Below, in pieces: positions 1,449 to 15,118 of a stretch of 26,357 bases of DNA. The stretch lies in IMG/VR virus record IMGVR_UViG_2541047815_000002, positions 1 to 26,357 of that record. One strand, given 5' to 3'. Each line of letters opens with the position of its first letter. Positions within the stretch are counted from its first letter, which is position 1. Origin of the DNA: a virus. Taxonomy: Duplodnaviria > Heunggongvirae > Uroviricota > Caudoviricetes. The translations under genes and the position numbers were made by a program. Below the pieces are notes generated by a model. That model had not been told where the DNA came from and did no database searches. It was given only the letters and a program-made list of their open reading frames with translations.

Positions 1449-2024
1449 CTATTTAACATACTTGACTGTTAAACTTATAATTTTACCAATTATTTCAATG
1501 TCTTCTATCTTACATTCAAAGGCTCTGTTTCCACCCTCGACGAAGATTCTTCCACCGGGTAAACGAGTAATGTCACGGATCGTTATTTCGCCATCAATAC
1601 TTATTACCCATTTACCATCACGTATATCATCAAATTCCTTATCACAAATAAATTCAGAATTATTATCTGTGATTACAAAAAGATTCTTGAATGCCGACGG
1701 TAGAAATTCTCTATCGAAAATATAAAAACCGTCTTCACACAAGGCCCCATCAGATAATACATATTTAGCAACTTCCATAGTATTTGTATTACCTGAAGTT
1801 TGCTTTGAACCATGCCCGGTTGTGAGCCAATTAAGCGAGGTGCCTGTTTCAAGGGCGCACTGGATTACCCATTCTGCTGGGAATGAGTCACGCATGTAGC
1901 GTGTGGCGAGTGTACTTTTAGAGATTCCTAAATGATCGCACAACGCCTGTCGAGTCTTGAATCCATAAGCTTCTACCATGCGCTCTATGGCGCCTCGTCC
2001 GCCTTTCTCCAAATTCATGGTCAC
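1449..2024 (-). CDS. cI: Immunity repressor CI (phage 186-type)
   Basis: 191-aa minus-strand ORF divergent from the lytic operon. N-terminal HTH-like segment (ALCDHLGISKSTLATRYMR). Position immediately upstream of int matches the P2/186 C-int arrangement. RBS GGAGTG lies just before the ATG at 2022-2024. Confidence 0.8.
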   Translation of the reverse strand: MTMNLEKGGRGAIERMVEAYGFKTRQALCDHLGISKSTLATRYMRDSFPAEWVIQCALETGTSLNWLTTGHGSKQTSGNTNTMEVAKYVLSDGALCEDGFYIFDREFLPSAFKNLFVITDNNSEFICDKEFDDIRDGKWVISIDGEITIRDITRLPGGRIFVEGGNRAFECKIEDIEIIGKIISLTVKYVK

Positions 2025-2042
2025 TCCAAGTGAACTTTTATC

Positions 2043-2071
2043 TTGACGATTTCACCGTGCGATCGTATGTT
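2043..2071 (+). promoter_or_regulatory. Candidate lytic promoter pR (-35 TTGACG, 17-bp spacer, -10 TATGTT)
   Basis: TTGACG at 2043-2048 and TATGTT at 2066-2071 with a 17-nt spacer, in the divergent cI/apl intergenic region, oriented toward apl-cII-A. Confidence 0.45.
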
Positions 2072-2143
2072 TATGGTGTTCACAAAATACAAACGATCCG
2101 TATTCGTCCTGATTAATCATCATTAAACGAGGAATGTTGCATC

Positions 2144-2365
2144 ATGAGACCTAACATTTCAATCACTCTTACCACGCCTCATGTGACTATTGAACGCTAT
2201 AGCGAGCTGACAGGGCTATCCATCGATACCATCAATGACATGTTGGCTGATGGACGCCTTATCCGTCACCGTCTGCGCAAAGATAAAAAACGCGAAAAAG
2301 TGATGATCAACATAGCAGCAATGACCGTTGATGCGCTTTCAGAATGCAATCTAAACCTTAATTAG
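2144..2365 (+). CDS. apl: Apl/Cox-like small DNA-binding excisionase/transcriptional regulator
   Basis: 73-aa basic protein and first gene of the rightward early operon, divergent from cI. This is the position of apl in 186 and cox in P2. ATG at 2144 with GAGG about 10 nt upstream. Confidence 0.6.
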
Positions 2366-2397
2366 TTCGATTCTGAAATACATCAGAGGCATTGACC

Positions 2398-2907
2398 ATG
2401 TTTGATTACCAAGTTTCCAAACATCCACATTTTGATGAAGCCTGTCGTGCATTTGCACTGCGCCACAATCTGGTGCAACTGGCAGAACGTGCAGGCATGA
2501 ATGTGCAGATTCTGCGGAACAAGCTGAACCCAGCTCAGCCTCATTTATTAACCGCACCAGAAATCTGGCTGCTTACCGATCTGACTGAAGATTCAACGCT
2601 GGTAGATGGTTTTCTGGCACAGATTCATTGTCTGCCATGTGTACCGATTAATGAGGTGGCAAAAGAGAAACTGCCACATTACGTCATGAGTGCAACCGCA
2701 GAGATCGGGCGTGTTGCTGCAGGTGCGGTGTCTGGCGATGTAAAAACCTGTGCCGGTCGTCGTGATGCTATCAGCAGCATTAACTCTGTAACACGACTGA
2801 TGGCGCTGGCGGCTGTTTCATTGCAGGCCCGTTTACAGGCTAATCCTGCGATGGCGAGTGCAGTTGATACCGTGACTGGCCTCGGTGCTTCATTTGGTTT
2901 GCTGTGA
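2398..2907 (+). CDS. cII: CII-like lysogeny-establishment activator (phage 186 CII family)
   Basis: Protein [45 protein letters not shown]... closely matches my recollection of 186 CII over its full length, including the HTH segment. ATG at 2398 is preferred over the upstream TTG at 2392. Confidence 0.8.
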
Positions 2908-2914
2908 GGTGCTT

Positions 2915-3115
2915 ATGCTGACGAAAGAACCATCATTTGCATCGCTGCTGGTTAAACAAAGCCCGGCAATGCATTACGGTCACGGCTGGATCATGGGGGA
3001 GGATGGTAAACGCTGGCATCCGTGCCGTTCACAAGATGAATTGCTGGCAGAACTATCTACGAAAAAACGGGGGAACAAATGGCTATTGAAGGCACTGCGG
3101 CGACTGTTCCATTAA
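2915..3115 (+). CDS. Hypothetical small early protein (fil-like position after cII)
   Basis: ATG at 2915 preceded by GAGGTG, which overlaps the cII stop. 66-aa basic protein. Identity not recognised. Confidence 0.45.
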   Translation: MLTKEPSFASLLVKQSPAMHYGHGWIMGEDGKRWHPCRSQDELLAELSTKKRGNKWLLKALRRLFH

Positions 3116-3420
3116 GCCCCGGTGAACGCCTGAATGGACTTAATCACATTGCGGAGTTAAGGGCGAAAGTTTTTGGCCTGAATATTGAGTCAGAGCTTGA
3201 GCGGTTTATTAAAGATATGCGTGATTCACGGGATATTAATAGCGAACAAAATAAACGGGCACTGGCTGCCATATTCTTTATGGCAAAAATTCCAGCTGAA
3301 CGTCATAGCATCAGCATTAATGAGCTGACCACTGACGAAAAGCGGGAGTTGATTAAAGCAATGAATCATTTTCGTGCAGTGGTGAGCTTATTTCCCAGAC
3401 GGCTAACCATGCCGAATTAA
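3079..3420 (+). CDS. Hypothetical early protein (113 aa)
   Basis: ATG at 3079 with GGGGA upstream, in the early operon. No recognisable motif. Confidence 0.5.
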   Translation: MAIEGTAATVPLSPGERLNGLNHIAELRAKVFGLNIESELERFIKDMRDSRDINSEQNKRALAAIFFMAKIPAERHSISINELTTDEKRELIKAMNHFRAVVSLFPRRLTMPN

Positions 3421-3487
3421 CCAACTAATGAAATTAATGGCGTAAACCCGCCGGGCATCCCTTTATCTAAATTCAGGAGAATTGATT

Positions 3488-3721
3488 ATGCGTAATATTG
3501 AAACCCTCTCGACCAAAACCGGACCGGATGACGCAGGGCTTAATATTTTACTGACAGAGGCTCGTCTGGAAGAACGCCGGGCAAGGGCTGAAGCAATGGC
3601 AGCTCGCCTTGATAGCCTGGCGTGTCATATCACATCCCGCCAGCTAACCCACGTCGAAGCGGCAGAACTGCTTCGTGTGACTGCTGAAGCAATCCAGAAC
3701 GAAGCGCAGGAGATCCACTAA
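3488..3721 (+). CDS. Hypothetical early protein (77 aa)
   Basis: ATG at 3488 with CAGGAGA upstream. Stop TAA overlaps the next start (TAATG). Confidence 0.5.
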   Translation: MRNIETLSTKTGPDDAGLNILLTEARLEERRARAEAMAARLDSLACHITSRQLTHVEAAELLRVTAEAIQNEAQEIH

Positions 3722-3948
3722 TGGCTGATGCAATGGATCTCGTACAGCAGCGCGTTGAAGAAGAACGCCAACGCCATATCCGTGCTGCCCGTGCCAAAAC
3801 GCCGGGCGTGTCCCGCGTGCTTTGCATTGAGTGTGAAGCGCCAATTCCGCCAGCACGCCGCCGTGCCATTCCGGGTGTGCAGCTTTGCATTACCTGTCAG
3901 GAAATCGCAGAGCTGAAAGGCAAACATTACAACGGAGGTGCTGTATGA
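3721..3948 (+). CDS. TraR/DksA-family C4 zinc-finger protein
   Basis: 75-aa protein with CxxC-(17 aa)-CxxC (CIECEAPIPPARRRAIPGVQLCITCQ), typical of phage TraR/DksA-like zinc fingers. Stop overlaps the Dam start (ATGA). Confidence 0.75.
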   Translation: MADAMDLVQQRVEEERQRHIRAARAKTPGVSRVLCIECEAPIPPARRRAIPGVQLCITCQEIAELKGKHYNGGAV

Positions 3949-4802: not shown

Positions 4803-7213
4803 GTCATGCCGATATGAACAACTGCTGCGGCTTTAACGAAGCTGCCGCATCGTTCTCATGGAACAGCTCGAAAAAGGCCATTAACCCTTATCTGGACCCG
4901 GTGGAAGTTGCGCCGGTTTCTACGCTTTCAAACCTGATCACTCTGTACGCTGCCGATAACGAGCAGGAACAGCTGCGCCGTGAGGCGCTGAGTGATCAGG
5001 TCTGGGAGCGTTATTTCTTTAATGAATCCCGTGATCCTGTCCAGCGCGAAATGGAACAGGATAAGCTCATTAGTCGGGCAAAGCTGGCGCATGAGCAGCA
5101 GCGTTTTAATCCGGATATGGTCATTCTGGCGGACGTCAACGCCCAGCCTTCCCATATCAGCAAGCCGCTGATGCAACGTATTGAATACTTCAGCAGCCTG
5201 GGCAGGCCAAAGGCTTATTCCCGCTATTTACGTGAGACGATTAAGCCATGTCTGGAACGACTGGAGCATGTACGCGACAGTCAGCTATCTGCATCTTTTC
5301 GCTTTATGGCAAGCCATGAAGGGCTGGACGGCCTGCTGATCCTGCCTGAAATGAGTCAGGATCAGGTGAAACGCCTGTCCACCCTGGTAGCTGCGCATAT
5401 GAGTATGTGCCTTGATGCCGCTTGTGGCGATTTGTATGCCACCGATGACGTTAAGCCAGAAGAAATCCGCAATACATGGGAAAGGGTGGCAGCGGAAACC
5501 CTGCGTCTGGATGTCATCCCGCCTGCGTTTGAGCAACTCCGTCGGAAAAGAAACCGCCGTAAACCCGTGCCCTATGAACTCATTCCGGGTTCGCTGGCGC
5601 GTATGTTGTGCGCCGACTGGTGGTATCGGAAATTATGGAAGATGCGTTGCGAATGGCGGGAAGAGCAGTTGCGTGCTGTCTGCCTTGTCAGCAAAAAAGC
5701 ATCTCCCTATGTCAGCTATGAAGCCGTGTTGCATAAACGTGAGCAGCGCCGTAAGTCGCTGGAGTTTTTCCGTTCTCATGAACTGGTGAACGAAGACGGC
5801 GACACGCTGGACATGGAGGATGTGGTAAACGCCAGCAGCAGCAACCCTGCGCATCGCCGCAATGAGATGATGGCCTGTGTTAAAGGTCTGGAGCTTATCG
5901 CGGAAATGCGCGGTGACTGCGCCGTTTTCTACACCATCACCTGTCCGTCACGTTTCCATTCCACGCTAAATAACGGCAGGCCCAACCCAACCTGGACAAA
6001 TGCGACGGTAAGACAAAGCAGTGATTATCTGGTCGGCATGTTTGCTGCATTTCGTAAGGCGATGCACAAAGCCGGATTGCGGTGGTATGGCGTGCGGGTG
6101 GCTGAGCCGCATCATGACGGTACAGTTCACTGGCACCTGTTGTGTTTTATGCGCAAAAAAGACCGCCGCACCATCACTGCATTACTGCGTAAGTTTGCCA
6201 TCCGTGAAGACCGCGAGGAGCTGGGCAATAACACTGGGCCGCGCTTTAAGTCTGAGTTGATTAACCCGCGCAAAGGTACGCCAACAAGCTACATCGCGAA
6301 ATACATCAGTAAGAACATTGACGGGCGTGGTCTGGCTGGCGAGATCAGCAAGGAAACGGGGAAATCCCTGCGTGATAATGCTGAATACGTTAATGCCTGG
6401 GCGTCTCTGCATCGTGTTCAGCAATTCCGCTTCTTTGGCATTCCGGGGCGTCAGGCTTACCGTGAACTGCGATTGCTGGCTGGTCAGGCGGCAAGGCAAC
6501 AGGGGGACAAAAAAGCAGGTGCGCCGGTACTGGATAACCCGCGCCTTGATGCCATTCTGGCTGCTGCTGATGCTGGTTGTTTTGCCACCTACATCATGAA
6601 GCAGGGTGGCGTACTGGTTCCCCGCAAATATCACCTCATCAGAACTGCTTATGAAATCAACGAAGAGCCGACCGCCTATGGCGATCACGGCATTCGTATT
6701 TATGGCATCTGGTCACCTATTGCAGAGGGCAAGATCTGCACTCATGCCGTGAAGTGGAAAATGGTTCGTAAGGCCGTTGACGTTCAGGAGGCGGCAGCCG
6801 ACCAGGGCGCTTGCGCCCCTTGGACTCGTGGCAATAACTGTCCCCTTGCTGAAAATTTGTACCAACAAGGGAAAGACAAATCAGCTGATGGGGATACCAG
6901 AACGGATATCACCCGTATGGATGACAAGGAGTTGCACGATTACCTGCACAGTATGAACAAAAAAGAACGCCGGGAACTGGCTGCAAGGTTACGCCTGGTG
7001 AAACCGAAACGGCGTAGAGACTACAAACAGCGAATTACAGACCATCAACGACAGCAGCTCGTCTATGAACTGAAGTCCAGAGGATTTGATGGCAGCGAGA
7101 AAGAGGTCGATTTACTCCTTCGCGGCGGCAGTATTCCGTCAGGAGCAGGCCTGCGTATCTTCTATCGGAACCAGCGTTTGCAGGAAGATGATAAGTGGCG
7201 GGATCTGTATTAA
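4799..7213 (+). CDS. A: Rolling-circle replication initiator (P2 gpA family endonuclease)
   Basis: 804-aa protein. HUH-type motif HWH at 6128-6136 and paired active-site tyrosines YIAKY at 6290-6304, as in P2 A and phiX174 A. Lies in the expected position after the early genes. Confidence 0.9.
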
Positions 7214-7305
7214 TTACGCGGGTTAACAATTCGTGCTCTTAATAATACCAGGCATATCAGGCTGATGAACGTAAAAAAACGTTTTACATCAGTAAGATTA
7301 TTATA

Positions 7306-7325
7306 TACTGTAAATATAAACAGTG
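7306..7325. promoter_or_regulatory. LexA (SOS) box TACTGTAAATATAAACAGTG
   Basis: Near-consensus CTGT-N8-ACAG operator (consensus TACTGTATATATATACAGTA) about 40 bp upstream of the 7367 start. A TTTACA -35-like hexamer sits at 7283-7288. Confidence 0.6.
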
Positions 7326-7366
7326 GTTATGTGTACAGTATTGCTTGTGGTGTCATAGGAGGAAAA

Positions 7367-7555
7367 ATGCAGGACTATTTTTTGGAGTCTTTGAAGCTCC
7401 AGCGCATTGATTTTTTTCTTAAGCTTGTAGCGGCTAGTGAGTGTAGTGATGAAGAGAAGGGGCTGGCTCTGCAGTGGGTTTCTGAATTGACTGATGAACT
7501 CATGGCAAAAATCAGAAGCCACGAATACAACCGCTCAATGGATGTCATCAGCTGA
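7367..7555 (+). CDS. Small acidic protein downstream of LexA box (candidate Tum-like antirepressor component)
   Basis: ATG at 7367 with AGGAGG 4 nt upstream. 62 aa. Functional call is by position and the LexA box only. Confidence 0.4.
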   Translation: MQDYFLESLKLQRIDFFLKLVAASECSDEEKGLALQWVSELTDELMAKIRSHEYNRSMDVIS

Positions 7556-7565
7556 GGTGACTTTT

Positions 7566-7799
7566 ATGCGCATTGAAATAATGATCGATAAAGAGCAGAA
7601 AATTAGCCAGTCTACCCTGGACGCCCTTGAATCCGAGCTTTACCGCAATCTGCGCCCCCTGTATCCCAAAACGGTAATTCGTATCCGCAAAGGTAGCTCT
7701 AACGGTGTGGAACTGACCGGACTGCAACTGGACGAAGAAAGAAAACAAGTGATGAAAATTATGCAGAAGGTGTGGGAAGACGACAGCTGGCTGCATTAA
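7566..7799 (+). CDS. DinI-family protein
   Basis: 77-aa protein beginning MRIEIMIDKEQ..., with an acidic C-terminus typical of DinI-like proteins. GAGGTGA RBS. Follows the LexA-boxed small gene. Confidence 0.75.
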   Translation: MRIEIMIDKEQKISQSTLDALESELYRNLRPLYPKTVIRIRKGSSNGVELTGLQLDEERKQVMKIMQKVWEDDSWLH

Positions 7800-8304
7800 G
7801 AAACGTTGCTGGCGTCTGAACTTGCTTCTGGCGTCAGCAAGGTTGAACAACGAGCTGTGCGAGGCGTTAGCCATCTGATCAAAAGACATCAAATATCATA
7901 TTGTATATCGTGGTCAAACGCTGGAAACAATCATTCCCGGTCAGAGGGGCTTCTTTCAATGTCCAAAAGAGTGAGATAGAGGATACAGGATGGGAAGAGC
8001 TTATGATGATTGTTCTTGGATTGACTTGGAATATTTGATGTCCATTATCTAATGGACTTGGTCTTGATAGTTATCACGAAAGAGGAAGCCAACGTCATGT
8101 ATTTGAAGAGTATCTCTTACCTTTTGATTAATTATTGTCCAAGTTTTTCAAAAGCTTCTTATCTGGCGGTCGATACATGATTTACTGTTGGATATGGTAT
8201 TTAAAATTAATCTTTACACTGTGGTATATGCAGAATAGGATATTATCAATACAATCAAACCGTTTTCATACGGTTGTTAATATTGCAATGTTATAGGTAA
8301 TGTC

Positions 8305-9423
8305 ATGTATCTTTTCAAGTATTACCGTCCGGACTTCTTCTTCGAGAAAGCTATTCGTTATAATGAATTATATTTTTCCGCTCCTGCGCAATTGAATGAT
8401 CCTAATGATCTCAATATAGATTATCGTTTTGATAATAAATTGAAATTATGGGATATTTTATTGCGTTCTCCTTGCGATAAATCCTATGAAAATTTGAGTC
8501 ACATATTAGATTTGAGTAATTTGAAGATACATAAGGGATTGAATCGTATTTTTAGAGGAAAAAAAATAAAAAGTAGCATTGAGTCATTAGATAGCCTGTT
8601 TGACTCACACGTTGATGAGATACGTAAGATCATAAATGATGGTTTACTACCTATCAATGTGATTAATTCCGCTATTTATGGGAATATTCCTGAACCACGC
8701 CAATTTTTGGTCTCACTTTGCGAGAACAGTATCAAAGAAAGGTTGTATAGGAAAATAGTTCCTGCAGTATTCAGTGTGTCATTTTCAGCTAATGCGTTAG
8801 ATCGTATGATGTGGGCGCATTATGCTGCAGGCTTTAGTGGTTGTGTTGTGATTTATGAAACGCAGGATTTTAATATTAATGGCGTGCCACATCCTGGAAT
8901 GAAGCTAAGAGAAAATTTATTTTCATCAGATAAATTTAATTTTCCAGTTAAGCAAATAAAATATAGTAATCAGGCTAAAGAGGTTTCACTTCTAGACCCA
9001 AGCGCAAATGTTGCAGAGTTATTTTTAACTAAAAATAGATTTTGGAGATATGAAGCTGAATATCGAATGTTTATTCCAGAGGCAAATGCAGGAATAGGGA
9101 GTGAGCGGCATGTTCAAAGACGCGTAAATCGAAATATTGGACATATTTTTCATCATGATGCTAATGTTGTTAAAGGGATCATTTTTGGTCCTAGAATGTG
9201 TGAAATGAAAAAAGAAAGCATATGGAATTGTATCAAGTCAAATATGGAGAATTCAAATTCAACAATATGTTATTTTTTTGACTCTGAGTTATCAGCATCA
9301 GGAAAGATTACTATTTCAAAAGGGCAACGAGCGGAAAAAATGAAAAATTTCCCTTTGTTCAGGAACAAGTTAAGTCAGACGGAAATGGCTAAAGTTTTGA
9401 AGGAAATTGGCATTACGAACTAA
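8305..9423 (+). CDS. DUF2971-like protein (372 aa), accessory cargo gene, candidate anti-phage/abortive-infection factor
   Basis: Lies in a strongly AT-rich island (by eye) that contrasts with the phage backbone. From memory it resembles the DUF2971 pattern: N-terminal LFKYYR ... LYFSAPAQLNDPND, then MWAHYA and RYEAEYRMF. It occupies the tin/old-equivalent hotspot downstream of A. Confidence 0.6.
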   Translation: MYLFKYYRPDFFFEKAIRYNELYFSAPAQLNDPNDLNIDYRFDNKLKLWDILLRSPCDKSYENLSHILDLSNLKIHKGLNRIFRGKKIKSSIESLDSLFDSHVDEIRKIINDGLLPINVINSAIYGNIPEPRQFLVSLCENSIKERLYRKIVPAVFSVSFSANALDRMMWAHYAAGFSGCVVIYETQDFNINGVPHPGMKLRENLFSSDKFNFPVKQIKYSNQAKEVSLLDPSANVAELFLTKNRFWRYEAEYRMFIPEANAGIGSERHVQRRVNRNIGHIFHHDANVVKGIIFGPRMCEMKKESIWNCIKSNMENSNSTICYFFDSELSASGKITISKGQRAEKMKNFPLFRNKLSQTEMAKVLKEIGITN

Positions 9424-9488
9424 CCTAACAACAGTGCATGCCTATGCTGCCTGAATTTGCATGACCGTTTGAGGATCGTTTTTGCTAA

Positions 9489-9513
9489 GGCCCGCCAGAA
9501 CTGGCGGGCTTTT
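9489..9513 (+). terminator. Rho-independent terminator after the 372-aa cargo gene
   Basis: GC-rich hairpin (GGCCCGCCA / loop GAAC / TGGCGGGCT) followed by a TTTT run. Confidence 0.5.
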
Positions 9514-9558
9514 GCGTGGATCAGGCACCTGCATGAAAACCACTACACAAAGCGGGCA

Positions 9559-9577
9559 GGCGTGGCGGGGATACGAG
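9559..9577. other. Candidate cos (cohesive-end) core
   Basis: GGCGTGGCGGGGA matches the first 13 nt of the 186/P2 19-nt cohesive end as I recall it (GGCGTGGCGGGGAAAGCAT / GGCGAGGCGGGGAAAGCAC). It sits in a short GC-rich patch inside the AT-rich island. The distal 6 nt differ from memory, so this is uncertain. Confidence 0.35.
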
Positions 9578-9679
9578 CGCGCGCTAACTCATAAATCCTA
9601 GATTATTAGTGGATTTATCTCATTGAAATGTGCACTATTCCCAGCATTGAGTTGTACCAGATGTCTTTATGGAGGGACT

Positions 9680-11477: not shown

Positions 11478-12506
11478 TTAGAAATGGTATTCTTGGAATT
11501 CAATAACACCTTCTTCTATGAAATTGTTTATTTCTTGTAATCTTTTTTGCAATGGCAATAATTCATTACGTACAAATACTTTACTCGCCTTCTCTACATC
11601 TCCAAAGCCCCCAACATTATTAGGCATTATCCCCATCATTTGCGGCGGCACACGGTGTGCCGCCATCATGTCGTCCCGACTCACGTTCTTGATATTCAGA
11701 AACTCATCCTTCGCCGCGACTTCTGACAACGGGATAATCTGAAGCCCGTCCTTTTTGCCGTTAGGAGAGTACATAAACAGGTTGCGGAAGTTGCCTGGCC
11801 CTTTGGCGCTTTTCATTGCGTTGCGGAGGTTGTTCACATCTTCTTGGTTCTGCGCGGCATCGGTCATGTACATGATGAAACCTGCATGGCTGCCGTTGAT
11901 GTAATACTTACGGCGGAACAGTGTGGCGGACTCGTTGAGCAGGGCTGACGGGATGGCAGAAAGATAACCTGGCAGGCCGTAGATCTCCTGGTTGATGTCC
12001 GGTTCCATCAGATGAAAAATGCTGCCTTTCGTGAACTGATACGGCTGGGCTGTCATACCGTATTGCACAAACCAGTAGGTATCCAGGTCTAATCCGCGTC
12101 GGGTGTATTTTGCCAAAGCTGGCTCAAGGGCGATAACTTCACCAAAGCGGTTCGTGCGTTTCTCCAGGTAGGCGTTACCAAATACCAGATAGTCCTGCAC
12201 AAAACGCGAAAAAGCCTGCTGGCTAAGCAGCGGATGAGGGATATAGGTACTGGTCAGAATGTTGCACTTTACTGCAATCGGGGAACTGTGATGCACGGCG
12301 GCGCGGAAGGTGCGCGCCAGTCCATTAAAGCTGACGGGCGGCTCATACCAGCGATCCATCTGTACGCATTCCACATAGTCCAGCAGTTCGCGGCGGTCCA
12401 GCACGGGGATGGGATCACCAAAGCTGAAAGCCTCAGCCGTTGGGCCGTTGCTTGGTTTTGTGTCGTGATCAACTGTTACCTGCTTGGTGTTTTTACGTTT
12501 GCTCAT
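11478..12506 (-). CDS. Q: Portal protein (P2 gpQ family)
   Basis: 342 aa, the size and position of P2 Q. Last gene of the leftward P-Q late operon. Start ATG at 12504-12506 overlaps the stop of the upstream paralog. Confidence 0.9.
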   Translation of the reverse strand: MSKRKNTKQVTVDHDTKPSNGPTAEAFSFGDPIPVLDRRELLDYVECVQMDRWYEPPVSFNGLARTFRAAVHHSSPIAVKCNILTSTYIPHPLLSQQAFSRFVQDYLVFGNAYLEKRTNRFGEVIALEPALAKYTRRGLDLDTYWFVQYGMTAQPYQFTKGSIFHLMEPDINQEIYGLPGYLSAIPSALLNESATLFRRKYYINGSHAGFIMYMTDAAQNQEDVNNLRNAMKSAKGPGNFRNLFMYSPNGKKDGLQIIPLSEVAAKDEFLNIKNVSRDDMMAAHRVPPQMMGIMPNNVGGFGDVEKASKVFVRNELLPLQKRLQEINNFIEEGVIEFQEYHF

Positions 12507-13210
12507 TCTGCCAGTTCCTTGCTAGCGAGAGGCCATTCGCACATAAACAGCATTTTCCAGTCCTCTTCTGATAATTCTTTTTTCATATCGTTCAGCCAGT
12601 TATCAGTAAACAACATTGCTCCAGATGCTGCTGCGTCATCTGCGGTGAACACCATGCTGGTTACGCTGTTGTTTCTGCATAGCTTTTTATATTCCTGCCG
12701 TGCCTCTGGGTTAGGGCTGGGAGTGGTGTAGTAGGTGGCGTGGTAGTGTGCGTGCATAGAAATCCCTTTAGCGATGGCAATCATATTTCTCGGTGATTCA
12801 CTCCAGGCATACTCTGACACGTAAACATTTCCACTGAGTGCGGAGGTGAGACTGCTGAGGTCGGTAAAATAAATTACTGCACCATTCGGAAGCTCCAGAT
12901 GACTTTTGCCTGATTTTATTTTTCCAGTGTGCGTATAAGCTGCGGCCTGGCTTAAGAATGCTGATACACAGGCTTTGATTGCCTGCGCAGATGCTGTGCT
13001 GCAGCAGAGGAAAATCTGGTTACGCCCGGTATGCAGTGCATCGTTCAGGGCTTCATAGGAAAAAAAGAAATCCGCGCCTGCCTGGCGCATTTTTGTGAGT
13101 ACACGGTTTCTACTCTTTGGGCCAGTGTTCCACTCATACTGGTAAGCAAAGAAAAAGCTATCCACCGGAAGTCCCGCGATAGTCATGAGGTTAGTTGGGA
13201 TTGGGGGCAT
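12503..13210 (-). CDS. Terminase large-subunit ATPase-domain paralog (truncated, degenerate Walker motifs)
   Basis: 235-aa ORF inserted between P and Q, overlapping both by a few nt. It aligns by eye to the central ATPase core of the adjacent gpP (EALNDALHTGRNQIFL vs EALIDALLTGRNQIFL; LPNGAVIYF vs LPNGATLYF; TYYTTPS vs TYFSTPS; LFMCEWP vs LLMCEFV). It lacks the gpP N-terminal roughly 150 aa and the C-terminal nuclease domain. Walker A-like KSRQIGAT in gpP is KMRQAGAD here (13070-13093), and Walker B LYLDE is VYVSE (Ser codon 12815-12817). Confidence 0.7.
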   Translation of the reverse strand: MPPIPTNLMTIAGLPVDSFFFAYQYEWNTGPKSRNRVLTKMRQAGADFFFSYEALNDALHTGRNQIFLCCSTASAQAIKACVSAFLSQAAAYTHTGKIKSGKSHLELPNGAVIYFTDLSSLTSALSGNVYVSEYAWSESPRNMIAIAKGISMHAHYHATYYTTPSPNPEARQEYKKLCRNNSVTSMVFTADDAAASGAMLFTDNWLNDMKKELSEEDWKMLFMCEWPLASKELAE

Positions 13211-14976
13211 CAAAAAATCTCCACAATATTGCTGGTATTGGCGGATTCGCCCTGCAGCGGTTCGTTAAACAGTGCGTGCATCGTTGCCCAGGCCAGATCG
13301 GCGTGGCTGGCTTCTTCGCTGCGGCTGGCTTCATAGGTTGGGCGGTTGCCGCTCGCGGTGGTGGCGCGACGGATTGCCATGAATGACTGCGCTATGTCGG
13401 TGTGTCCGGCGTCAAACTCCAGACGGCGGTGGCTGATAATGTCGTAGGCCTTGAGTACCAGGGCGTTTTTAACATTGGGGTTATAGACAAACTCCCGGAC
13501 GGCTGGAAAAAACGCTTTCACGTTCTCGTAAACCCCGTGGCCGACACCTGTCGAGTCGATGCCGATGTAGGTCACGTTGTACTGCTCGGTCAGTTTTTTG
13601 ATGGCGTCAGCCTGGGCGCGGAAGTCCATCCCACGCCACTGGTGACGCTCAAGAATGCGGAACTTACCACCAGGCACGGCTGGCGGTGCCACCACTACGC
13701 ATCCGGCGCTGTCGCCGTTTTGCGTACCTTTTGCCGGGTCATAACCGATCCACACTTCGCGCCAGCCAAACGGGCGCAGAGCCAGTGCATGAAAGTCGGT
13801 CCAGACTTCCCAGCTGTCCACCATGCACGCCTGCAGCTCGCTGAGCGGGAACACGGACGCGAGATCGTCCACAAACTCGCACATCAGCAGGTTCTGGTAT
13901 TCGTCCGGGCTGTACTCCATGCGCAACTGGTCAAGGTCGAACAGGTTACAGCCGCCGCGCACCGCATCTTCCACGGTGACTATCTGGCGGTATTGCCCGT
14001 CTGCGCACAGCAGGCCGGGGGCCAGATTGCTGTGGGACAGGTCGATGTCCACCTTGTCGGCCTTGTTGCGCCCACGGTTGAACAGCGCACCGGACCAGAA
14101 CGGATAAGCACTGTGTGTCAGGCTGGATGGCGTGGAAAAATAGGTTTGTCGCCATTTTTTGTGAATAGCCATACCGGAAGCCACTTTGCGCAGCTCCTGG
14201 AATTTCGGTATCCAGAAATATTCATCCAGATACAGGTTGCCGTGATAACTCTGGGCCGTGCGGGCATTGGTGCCGAGGAAGTAAAGCGTGGCTCCGTTAG
14301 GAAGCACCATCGGATCGCCTTTCAGCTCCACCTCGACTTCTTTGGCGAAGTCTATGATGTACTGCTTAAAGACGTGAGCCTGTGCCTTACTGGCAGAAAG
14401 GAAAATCTGGTTACGTCCGGTAAGCAGGGCGTCAATCAGGGCTTCACGGGCAAAGTAAAAGGTCGCGCCGATCTGGCGTGACTTCAGCAGGTTGCGGATG
14501 CGGTTGGTTTTTCCGGCTTCCCACCAGTGGCGCTGGTAGTTGAACATGGAGGAATGGAAAATTTCTTCCAGCTTCTCAATCTGTTCATCGGTGAAAACAT
14601 TCTTTTCCGGCTGACGGCGCGGGCCTTTGTTGCGGTTGGCGACGTTAGGGTTTAAGTCGGCTTCGTTACCGCCATTGTTAAACTTGCCGATCCGCGCGTG
14701 GCGCTCCGACTGGCGCGCCAGCAGGTCAATTTCTTTGAAATCTTTCCCTTCTTTGTGCTCCTTCATAATGAGCTGGCAGTAGCGTGCGGCGGTGGTGAGC
14801 TGCATCTGATCCAGCGGCCCATAGTCACCCCACTTGTCGCGTTTTTTCCAGCTGTGAACGGTTGCAACTTTCTCGCCCAGCATTTCAGCAATGCGGGCTA
14901 CGCGGTATCCCTGAAAGTACAGCAGCATGGCCTGCCGACGGGGATCGAGATCTGCGGGTGTCAGTGTGGTGTTCAT
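13210..14976 (-). CDS. P: Terminase large subunit, ATPase (P2 gpP family)
   Basis: 588 aa. N-terminal HTH-like region, deviant Walker A KSRQIGAT (lambda gpA-like), Walker B LYLDE, C-terminal nuclease region. Divergent from O across the late-promoter region. Confidence 0.9.
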   Translation of the reverse strand: MNTTLTPADLDPRRQAMLLYFQGYRVARIAEMLGEKVATVHSWKKRDKWGDYGPLDQMQLTTAARYCQLIMKEHKEGKDFKEIDLLARQSERHARIGKFNNGGNEADLNPNVANRNKGPRRQPEKNVFTDEQIEKLEEIFHSSMFNYQRHWWEAGKTNRIRNLLKSRQIGATFYFAREALIDALLTGRNQIFLSASKAQAHVFKQYIIDFAKEVEVELKGDPMVLPNGATLYFLGTNARTAQSYHGNLYLDEYFWIPKFQELRKVASGMAIHKKWRQTYFSTPSSLTHSAYPFWSGALFNRGRNKADKVDIDLSHSNLAPGLLCADGQYRQIVTVEDAVRGGCNLFDLDQLRMEYSPDEYQNLLMCEFVDDLASVFPLSELQACMVDSWEVWTDFHALALRPFGWREVWIGYDPAKGTQNGDSAGCVVVAPPAVPGGKFRILERHQWRGMDFRAQADAIKKLTEQYNVTYIGIDSTGVGHGVYENVKAFFPAVREFVYNPNVKNALVLKAYDIISHRRLEFDAGHTDIAQSFMAIRRATTASGNRPTYEASRSEEASHADLAWATMHALFNEPLQGESANTSNIVEIF

Positions 14977-15022
14977 GGCACAAACCTACAGCCTTGAATG
15001 AAGGCTTTCCCCGCCTGCGGTT

Positions 15023-15040
15023 TGTGTGGTTGTCGGTACA
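15023..15040. promoter_or_regulatory. Ogr/Delta-type late-promoter activator site (TGT-N12-ACA) in the P/O divergent region
   Basis: TGTGTGGTTGTCGGTACA. The dyad centre is about 55 bp upstream of the P start codon, the same geometry as the site upstream of V. Confidence 0.5.
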
Positions 15041-15118
15041 AATACCGCGCATTGTTTCACTGCCCCCATCACCGCAACCATAAGGCTCCAGTAAGTTTTT
15101 TCTAACGGAGCACGGCTC

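Follow-up and report, generated by a model that had tools for sequence, protein, structure and literature searches.

The closest described counterparts of the gene considered here are found in P2/186-like phages. The annotation of P2 places the terminase gene P and the portal gene Q next to each other, without a gene between them. Coliphage 186 (U32222, NC_001317) carries at this position a 248-amino-acid (aa) "W protein" annotated as "similar to Orf12" (1215-1961; AAC34147.1 / NP_052250.1), which is flanked by Orf12 (1961-3730), the homolog of P2 P, and Orf2 (196-1218), the homolog of P2 Q, and overlaps both. PSP3 has a gene at the same position, NP_958057.1, annotated as "similar to 186 W". 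The class has been represented in GenBank since the 186 sequence was deposited, and no mechanism for it surfaced in the literature searched; full-text searches, which did not reach the primary 186 papers, returned nothing on the function of W or on terminase decoys. We take 186 W to be a named gene of the head-gene cluster, defined by conditional-lethal mutants; an amber mutation in it might also have polar effects on the portal gene, to which W is coupled. Here we describe a gene of this kind, designated X, in a 26,357-nucleotide (nt) stretch of a P2/186-like prophage (IMG/VR record IMGVR_UViG_2541047815_000002; hereafter the window). X is a minus-strand open reading frame (ORF) of 235 aa at 13210..12503, between the gpP terminase and portal Q. 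The explanation we favor, at about even chances, is that X is an authentic accessory late gene, conserved and of the class typified by 186 W, and that its product may act as a nucleotide-binding auxiliary of the packaging machinery.

X aligns to the neighboring gpP at 32% identity over 238 columns (BLASTP, E 6e-31), covering gpP residues 142-368 of 588. Terminase_6N is the only Pfam domain detected (residues 42-227 of 235; 59.9 bits, cut-off 22), and the protein matches phrog_3746 (E 2.9e-84) and no NCBIfam family. As judged from these domain searches, X is without the N-terminal helix-turn-helix (HTH) region of ~140 residues (Terminase_5) and without the RNase-H-like nuclease domain. It departs from functional large terminase subunits (TerLs) in two respects: no Terminase_6C nuclease is fused C-terminally to the ATPase, and the Walker A Ser/Thr and Walker B Asp-Glu are replaced by Asp and Ser-Glu. 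An AlphaFold2 (AF2) model built on 25 family members (pLDDT 79, pTM 0.80) finds as its top Foldseek matches the TerL ATPase domains of P74-26, T4 gp17 and D6E (TMq 0.59-0.67, probability 1.0), and a PDB sequence search with the X family profile gave no match at E <= 0.01. The predicted fold resembles P74-26 TerL 1-256 and the N-terminal domain of T4 gp17 over essentially its whole length (TMq 0.59-0.65), at an identity of 12-16%; unlike these laboratory truncations, X is a naturally encoded separate gene. On the model, X is a complete TerL ATPase domain and not a fragment of one.

Both ends of X overlap the adjacent genes. The X ATG (13210-13208) and the gpP stop TGA (13212-13210) have one base in common; at the other end, ATGA combines the portal ATG (12506-12504) with the X stop TGA (12505-12503). 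The order P, X, Q on one strand is kept in every locus examined, namely those of Yersinia phage vB_YpM_MLG42, Escherichia phage 500465-1, Pantoea, Phytobacter, Citrobacter, Yersinia (two loci), Serratia and Buttiauxella. Junctions were read in these loci minus the frameshifted 500465-1 record: T(G/A)ATG is present at the P/X end in 13/13 X loci examined (TAATG in 186), and ATGA at the X/Q end in 12 of the 13, Phytobacter being the exception (GCATGA in 186). In the 500465-1 record (L003 6001-7758), the X homolog and the portal are each split into two coding sequences, as is an IstB gene, which suggests sequencing frameshifts in the record and not real pseudogenes. A preliminary description of this DNA had reported the 235-aa ORF with overlapping codons on both sides, its homology to the gpP ATPase core without the N-terminal and nuclease domains, the motif changes KSRQIGAT to KMRQAGAD and LYLDE to VYVSE, and the adjacency of P and Q in P2. 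All of these hold, the motifs being read directly from the sequence, and the structure prediction it had proposed as a check recovered TerL ATPase domains.

Conserved stop/start overlaps within the late P operon imply translational coupling of X with P and Q, as far as gene layout can tell. The earlier statement that X is made stoichiometrically with its neighbors is upheld in part: coupling supports co-expression, but does not prove stoichiometry. By analogy with P2 and 186, transcription of the P-X-Q operon presumably starts in the divergent promoter region upstream of gpP (Table 1). No sigma-70-like promoter was detected directly upstream of X in a weak consensus scan, and an internal promoter for lysogenic expression of X was discarded on that scan. 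RefSeq/PGAP starts of X vary between genomes and include internal ones, giving lengths of 663-708 nt (window 12503-13210 vs CH4794 locus L001 14204-14887); the ATG overlapping the gpP stop is more likely the true start because it is conserved in all lineages. A programmed -1 frameshift fusing gpP to X was also considered, as a ribosome slipping on the T-run of the window sequence ATT TTT TGA TG would shift into the frame of X. It was rejected, since the T-run is not conserved (TTC TGA, TAT TAA and AAC TAA elsewhere) and the empty site has the same junction before Q.

The ATP site of X combines two substitutions with strict conservation of its remaining motifs. D47 stands where full-length TerLs have Thr/Ser in Walker A, and S132 takes the place of the Walker B Asp (Table 1). 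Across the X family, whose length holds at 225-241 aa in sequences as low as 33-39% in identity to the window protein, F21, Q24, R36, K40, R42, G45, A46, D47, S132, E133, T159 and S165 are invariant. Altogether 30 residues are invariant at about 35% identity, including K40, R42, E133 and Q24; in the C-motif, where T159 and S165 do not vary, Y161, T162 and P164 are conserved in at least 90% of members. A profile search of 1.84 billion representatives gave 512 matches at E <= 0.001, and among the best 150 of these, about 50 are short stand-alone proteins (215-262 aa) spanning the whole profile. For motif comparison, 63 full-length TerLs (at least 490 aa) and 49 short proteins were aligned. The canonical set, comprising the P-loop Lys and Arg, Walker A Thr/Ser, Walker B Asp and catalytic Glu, is complete in 63/63 full-length TerLs vs 11/49 short proteins. 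Non-canonical catalytic motifs occur in 38/49 short proteins vs 0/63 full-length ones (Fisher 3e-20, uncorrected for phylogeny).

The two Walker changes go together. All 25 short proteins with a Walker A Asp have a non-Asp Walker B (Ser in 19, Pro in 4, Gly in 1, Ala in 1), compared with 5/24 of the other short proteins (p 2e-9). These Asp-type proteins otherwise keep the site, with Q24 and R42 retained in 25/25 and K40 and E133 in 24/25. The GAD/non-Asp state is found in three clades: X itself, a Yersinia enterocolitica group nearest 186 W, and a third clade described below, in its members from Morganella and Xenorhabdus. Read from these alignments, the X ATP site is a rewired, coupled alternative configuration and not a decaying one, since the residues listed above do not change even where identity to the window protein drops to 33-39%. 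The label "degenerate", attached to X in the preliminary description, does not fit: both substitutions are fixed, they co-vary in subfamily members as distant as about 35% identity, and the rest of the ATP site stays invariant. Within the literature searched, the coupled rewiring of Walker A and B and the contrast between short and full-length proteins appear to be undescribed so far.

X shares its layout with 186 W and PSP3 W. It is likewise a lone Terminase_6N ATPase core without HTH or nuclease, falls within the W-type size range (about 225-255 aa), and lies between P and Q homologs on the same strand with the same 1-nt stop/start overlaps. Unlike 186 W, X has KxRQxGAD and VSE, and it is shorter through deletion of roughly 15-25 residues after the C-motif. 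Among 186-type W proteins, each of the 28 full-length homologs (50-95% identity to W; set P0234-P0259, minus two fragments) carries canonical KSRQIGAT or KARQIGAT with LDE. PSP3 W (L023 1217-1963) reads GNVYLDDFGW, with Asp in place of the catalytic Walker B Glu that is present in 186 W and 28 other full-length close homologs. X also resembles P2-family gpP and 186 Orf12 in its ATPase domain, with a Q-motif, a P-loop with the upstream Lys (KSRQ..), a catalytic Glu and a C-motif, and in belonging to the same operon, but differs from them in lacking Terminase_5, Terminase_6C, the Walker A Thr/Ser and the Walker B Asp.

Identity alone does not place X closer to W than to gpP: X and 186 W are 32% identical (E 7e-33), no better than X and gpP, and over the ATPase cores X matches 186 W at 34% and gpP cores at 36%. 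The Yersinia enterocolitica group (P0061, P0260, P0261) is 43-49% identical to W and has X-type motifs (KSRQIGAD / LGE); on these features it is a bridge between W and X. In a bootstrapped neighbor-joining (NJ) tree of 112 ATPase cores, full-length TerLs group together with a few short proteins among them, and this group excludes the X clade, 186 W and their relatives; the split of full-length TerLs from the W/X and Morganellaceae clades has a bootstrap of 90/100. On present comparisons, X is a positional and architectural homolog of W that forms a distinct, divergent subfamily and may or may not share a single origin with it. A tblastn search of X against 50,697 phage records found 506 places in 485 records, with roughly 21 extra places in 186, PSP3, EtG, Midge, Yersinia YenM phages, MLG42 and 500465-1. 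The idea that X is a novel extra gene falls with the 248-aa W of 186 and PSP3, which sits here with the same 1-nt overlaps; a gene between P and Q is routine for 186, though not for P2. The P-W/X-Q architecture is a long-catalogued feature of 186-type phages, not a novel one.

A search of 5.8 billion proteins identified 58 X relatives, most of 225-241 aa, down to 38% BLASTP identity, in Escherichia, Citrobacter, Salmonella, Leclercia, Klebsiella, Phytobacter, Pantoea, Yersinia and Buttiauxella. A 1.1-kb stretch spanning X was used as a probe against 5,426 complete E. coli genomes. The P and Q flanks of this stretch are matched in 1,222 of the genomes, the whole X insert lies between P and Q in 21 (79-100% DNA identity), and 186-W-type DNA is present in 8. 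The 21 genomes also dispose of an assembly duplication, which the preliminary description had named as a possible source of the apparent paralogy. E. coli ARL09/232 (NZ_CP049967.1) carries an X-type prophage (~1,300,376 / ~4,269,738 pair of loci; 99.9% to the window stretch) together with a 186-W-type prophage (94.5% to 186 W), and is a natural polylysogen with both subfamilies. That X-carrying phages are viable follows from MLG42, an X-bearing isolate that forms plaques (PMC11126057). In the X-minus prophage of E. coli C2, TGATG connects P straight to Q. Sequence comparison shows X to be an accessory gene, unneeded for this terminase to exist in an ordinary prophage, because C2 has the same gpP.

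Pairwise Nei-Gojobori estimates of the nonsynonymous to synonymous substitution ratio (dN/dS) are 0.13-0.43 for X, typically about 0.2, compared with 0.00-0.08 for gpP and 0.01-0.13 for Q. By this measure X is under purifying selection, 3-10 times weaker than that on P and Q. Among X-plus prophages, identity is 99.5-100% for gpP, 77-90% for X and 86-94% for Q, and the synonymous divergence (dS) between the window and locus L018 is about 0.2 for gpP, about 0.77 for X and about 1.7 for Q; this profile marks a recombination boundary at the P/X junction. A portal N-terminus that tracks X was considered and dropped: X-plus portals begin MSKRKN.. and the X-minus C2 portal MKEHIAPDE..., yet the portal of P2, which has no W, starts MSKKKGK.

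If X is an auxiliary of the packaging motor, it would be translated by coupling between terminase and portal from the P-operon transcript. It would bind nucleotide through the retained Q-motif, the P-loop Lys and Arg, the catalytic Glu and the C-motif, and the carboxylate that holds Mg2+ may have relocated from Walker B to the metal-ligating position of Walker A, which would keep binding and alter catalysis. The protein could then associate with the gpP ATPase ring, the portal, or both, as a non-nucleolytic auxiliary or regulatory subunit. Without the N-terminal domain it would not bind gpM or cos through that domain, it would not cut DNA, and it would be dispensable for the basic activity of gpP. 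Several observations weigh against this role. The joint W and X clade has a weak bootstrap of 46/100, and the dN/dS of X is 3-10 times that of P and Q. gpP WP_001098431.1 is identical in the C2 prophage without X and in the closest X-plus genome; since the same gpP thus occurs with P and Q adjacent, and P2 has no X, a motor role of X cannot be essential. The near-constant gpP stands beside X proteins differing by 10-23%, so the sequences give no sign of tight co-evolution between the two.

A second location of short ATPase cores also argues against a strictly stoichiometric motor subunit. In P2-like prophages of Proteus, Morganella and Providencia, P and Q are adjacent, and a TerL ATPase core of 221-231 aa is encoded in the gpA-portal interval. 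The gene directly follows the replication gene gpA in early-gene orientation in Morganella and Providencia; in Proteus it lies beyond Q, beside a KAP-like NTPase. The Morganellaceae clade (Proteus, Morganella, Providencia, Xenorhabdus) has a bootstrap of 100/100 and is 22-31% identical to X; no counterpart was found in deposited phage records. Its Walker B is SE or PE, and its Walker A is GAD in Morganella and Xenorhabdus (KGRQIGAD) and G[SG]S in Proteus and Providencia. X resembles these proteins in its domain-only architecture, its size and the loss of the Walker B Asp, but lies between P and Q and not in the gpA-portal region. Because the Morganellaceae cores sit elsewhere, a short core need not be made in a fixed ratio with terminase and portal, and this early-operon clade does not fit such a subunit. 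Their place outside the P-Q position also keeps a conflict-type role in play.

Such a role is the strongest of the alternatives, although we consider it unlikely. X would be a TerL mimic that serves as a decoy or competitive ligand for the Avs1-3 sensors, or acts as a dominant negative against the terminases of satellites or rival P2-like phages. The preliminary description had offered, as speculation, a packaging modulator, a factor against satellites and a decoy for host sensors as possible roles. Recognition of TerL by Avs1-3 is well established (PMC13581612), and in Foldseek the X model aligns to 8dgc_E, the terminase bound by Avs3 (TMq 0.68). A patchy, accessory distribution would suit a conflict gene, with 21 X-type and 8 186-W-type E. 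coli genomes vs 1,222 with a window-like P/Q junction, as would the faster evolution of X relative to its neighbors, the repeated remodeling of catalytic motifs in short forms only (38/49 vs 0/63 full-length), and the position of the Morganellaceae sister clade beside cargo genes in the variable gpA-Q region. However, PADLOC-DB v2 profiles match neither X nor 186 W nor the Proteus short protein at E <= 0.01, NCBIfam is equally silent on X, and the literature searches revealed no precedent for a terminase decoy. X also resides in an operon of late structural genes, where the weak scan detected no separate promoter for it, and a simple decoy does not require strict conservation of the ATP site.

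Nor does X follow particular defense cargo. The variable region between gpA and Q of X-plus prophages holds AIPR with DUF2971, TIR, a DEAD helicase, DarT/macro, or nothing. A link of X to particular hotspot cargo was ruled out on this basis, and for this cargo the co-variation with defense content that the preliminary description had suggested looking for was absent; from gene content, X is not part of a hotspot system. A broader version of the conflict idea holds that the stand-alone TerL cores of 186 W, X and the early-operon clade of Morganellaceae are conflict mimics that might blunt Avs1-3 or sabotage the packaging motors of competing P2-like phages or satellites, with the coupled Walker change preserving ATP-bound mimicry while barring the protein from acting in, or poisoning, its own motor. 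We regard this generalization as quite improbable.

To a similarly low degree, X may be an ATPase-dead filler or spacer, kept mainly because the portal is translated by coupling to it, or to provide an inert scaffold. The loss of the Walker B Asp and replacement of the Walker A Thr agree with inertness, the start/stop overlaps are conserved, and other short paralogs have plainly inactivating changes, such as PSP3 W (Glu to Asp), P0134, P0142, P0188 and P0195. Still, the empty site couples P to Q by the same TGATG, leaving a spacer superfluous, and a spacer would keep neither 30 invariant residues at about 35% identity nor a dN/dS of about 0.2. A non-functional remnant of duplication or recombination, or an assembly artefact, might be read from the patchy distribution and the mosaic divergence boundary at the P/X junction, but is effectively refuted by the ORF being intact and constant in length across eight or more genera and in isolated phages, by dN/dS well below 1 with invariant motif residues, and by the recurrence of X in 21 independent complete genomes.

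Table 1. Coordinates of X, its motifs and junctions, flanking genes and other features; positions are those of the window unless a locus is named.
Feature	Position	Strand	Evidence or remark
X, stand-alone TerL ATPase-domain protein (W-like), 235 aa, stop codon included	12503..13210	-	ORF, Pfam, phrog_3746, AF2, Foldseek, dN/dS
gpP, full-length large terminase, 588 aa, HTH + ATPase + nuclease	13210..14976	-	Pfam Terminase_5, Terminase_6N, Terminase_6C
gpQ portal, 342 aa	11478..12506	-	Pfam Phage_portal; phrog_68 E 2e-173
TGATG, gpP stop overlapping X start	13208..13212	-	sequence and junction comparison
ATGA, portal start overlapping X stop	12503..12506	-	sequence and junction comparison
GGAG, Shine-Dalgarno-like, 8 nt upstream of X ATG, within last gpP codons	13219..13222	-	sequence; predicted function
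Divergent late-promoter region between gpP and gpO	14977..15118	.	position, cf. annotated pP/pO of P2 and p12/pV of 186
Y23-Q24, adenine-binding Q-motif	13139..13144	-	Q24 invariant in X family, common to gpP
Walker A KMRQAGAD; K40, R42, G45, A46, D47 invariant	13070..13093	-	family alignment; gpP has KSRQIGAT
Walker B VYVSE; S132 replaces Asp, catalytic E133 invariant	12812..12826	-	family alignment; gpP has LYLDE
C (coupling) motif region TYYTTPS	12716..12736	-	gpP has TYFSTPS
DUF2971 cargo protein	8305-9423		matches PADLOC candidate PDC-S31, E 3e-23
AIPR-family cargo protein	9623-11446		matches AbiU, E 6e-25 (PADLOC)
Morganellaceae short TerL core	L012 5811-6506	-	
Morganellaceae short TerL core	L024 10001-10681		
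Morganellaceae short TerL cores	L025 and L026 10001-10693		

Beyond the P-X-Q segment, the window contains a cohesive-end (cos)-like sequence, GGCGTGGCGGGGATACGA, at 9559-9576 (context 9470-9590), with 3 mismatches to the P2 and 186 cohesive-end consensus. The surrounding block is conserved in E. coli C2 (L015 about 890-1010). A cargo gene separates the cos-like site from the portal, AIPR in the window and GTP pyrophosphokinase in C2, while in P2 and 186 the distance from cos to portal is only about 190 nt. The best-matching genome, CH4794, has ISVsa5, an IS4-like insertion sequence (IS), between gpA and a DinI-like gene, and the window does not (window about 7213-8305 vs L001 7576-10006); here the coordinate offset to CH4794 grows by 1338 bp, from 363 to 1701. 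As ISVsa5 is absent from it, the window represents a different, IS-free copy of the prophage.

The original observation was correct, and it concerns a gene that is under-studied yet already catalogued, so that the degree of surprise is moderate. Should X prove to be a conflict mimic, it would represent a new type of counter-defense. Should it prove to be a motor auxiliary, P2/186-like prophages would offer a natural ring ATPase working with a catalytically altered, nuclease-free paralog, and the paired Walker A/B change would serve directly as a tool for probing the construction of the metal site in this ATPase family.

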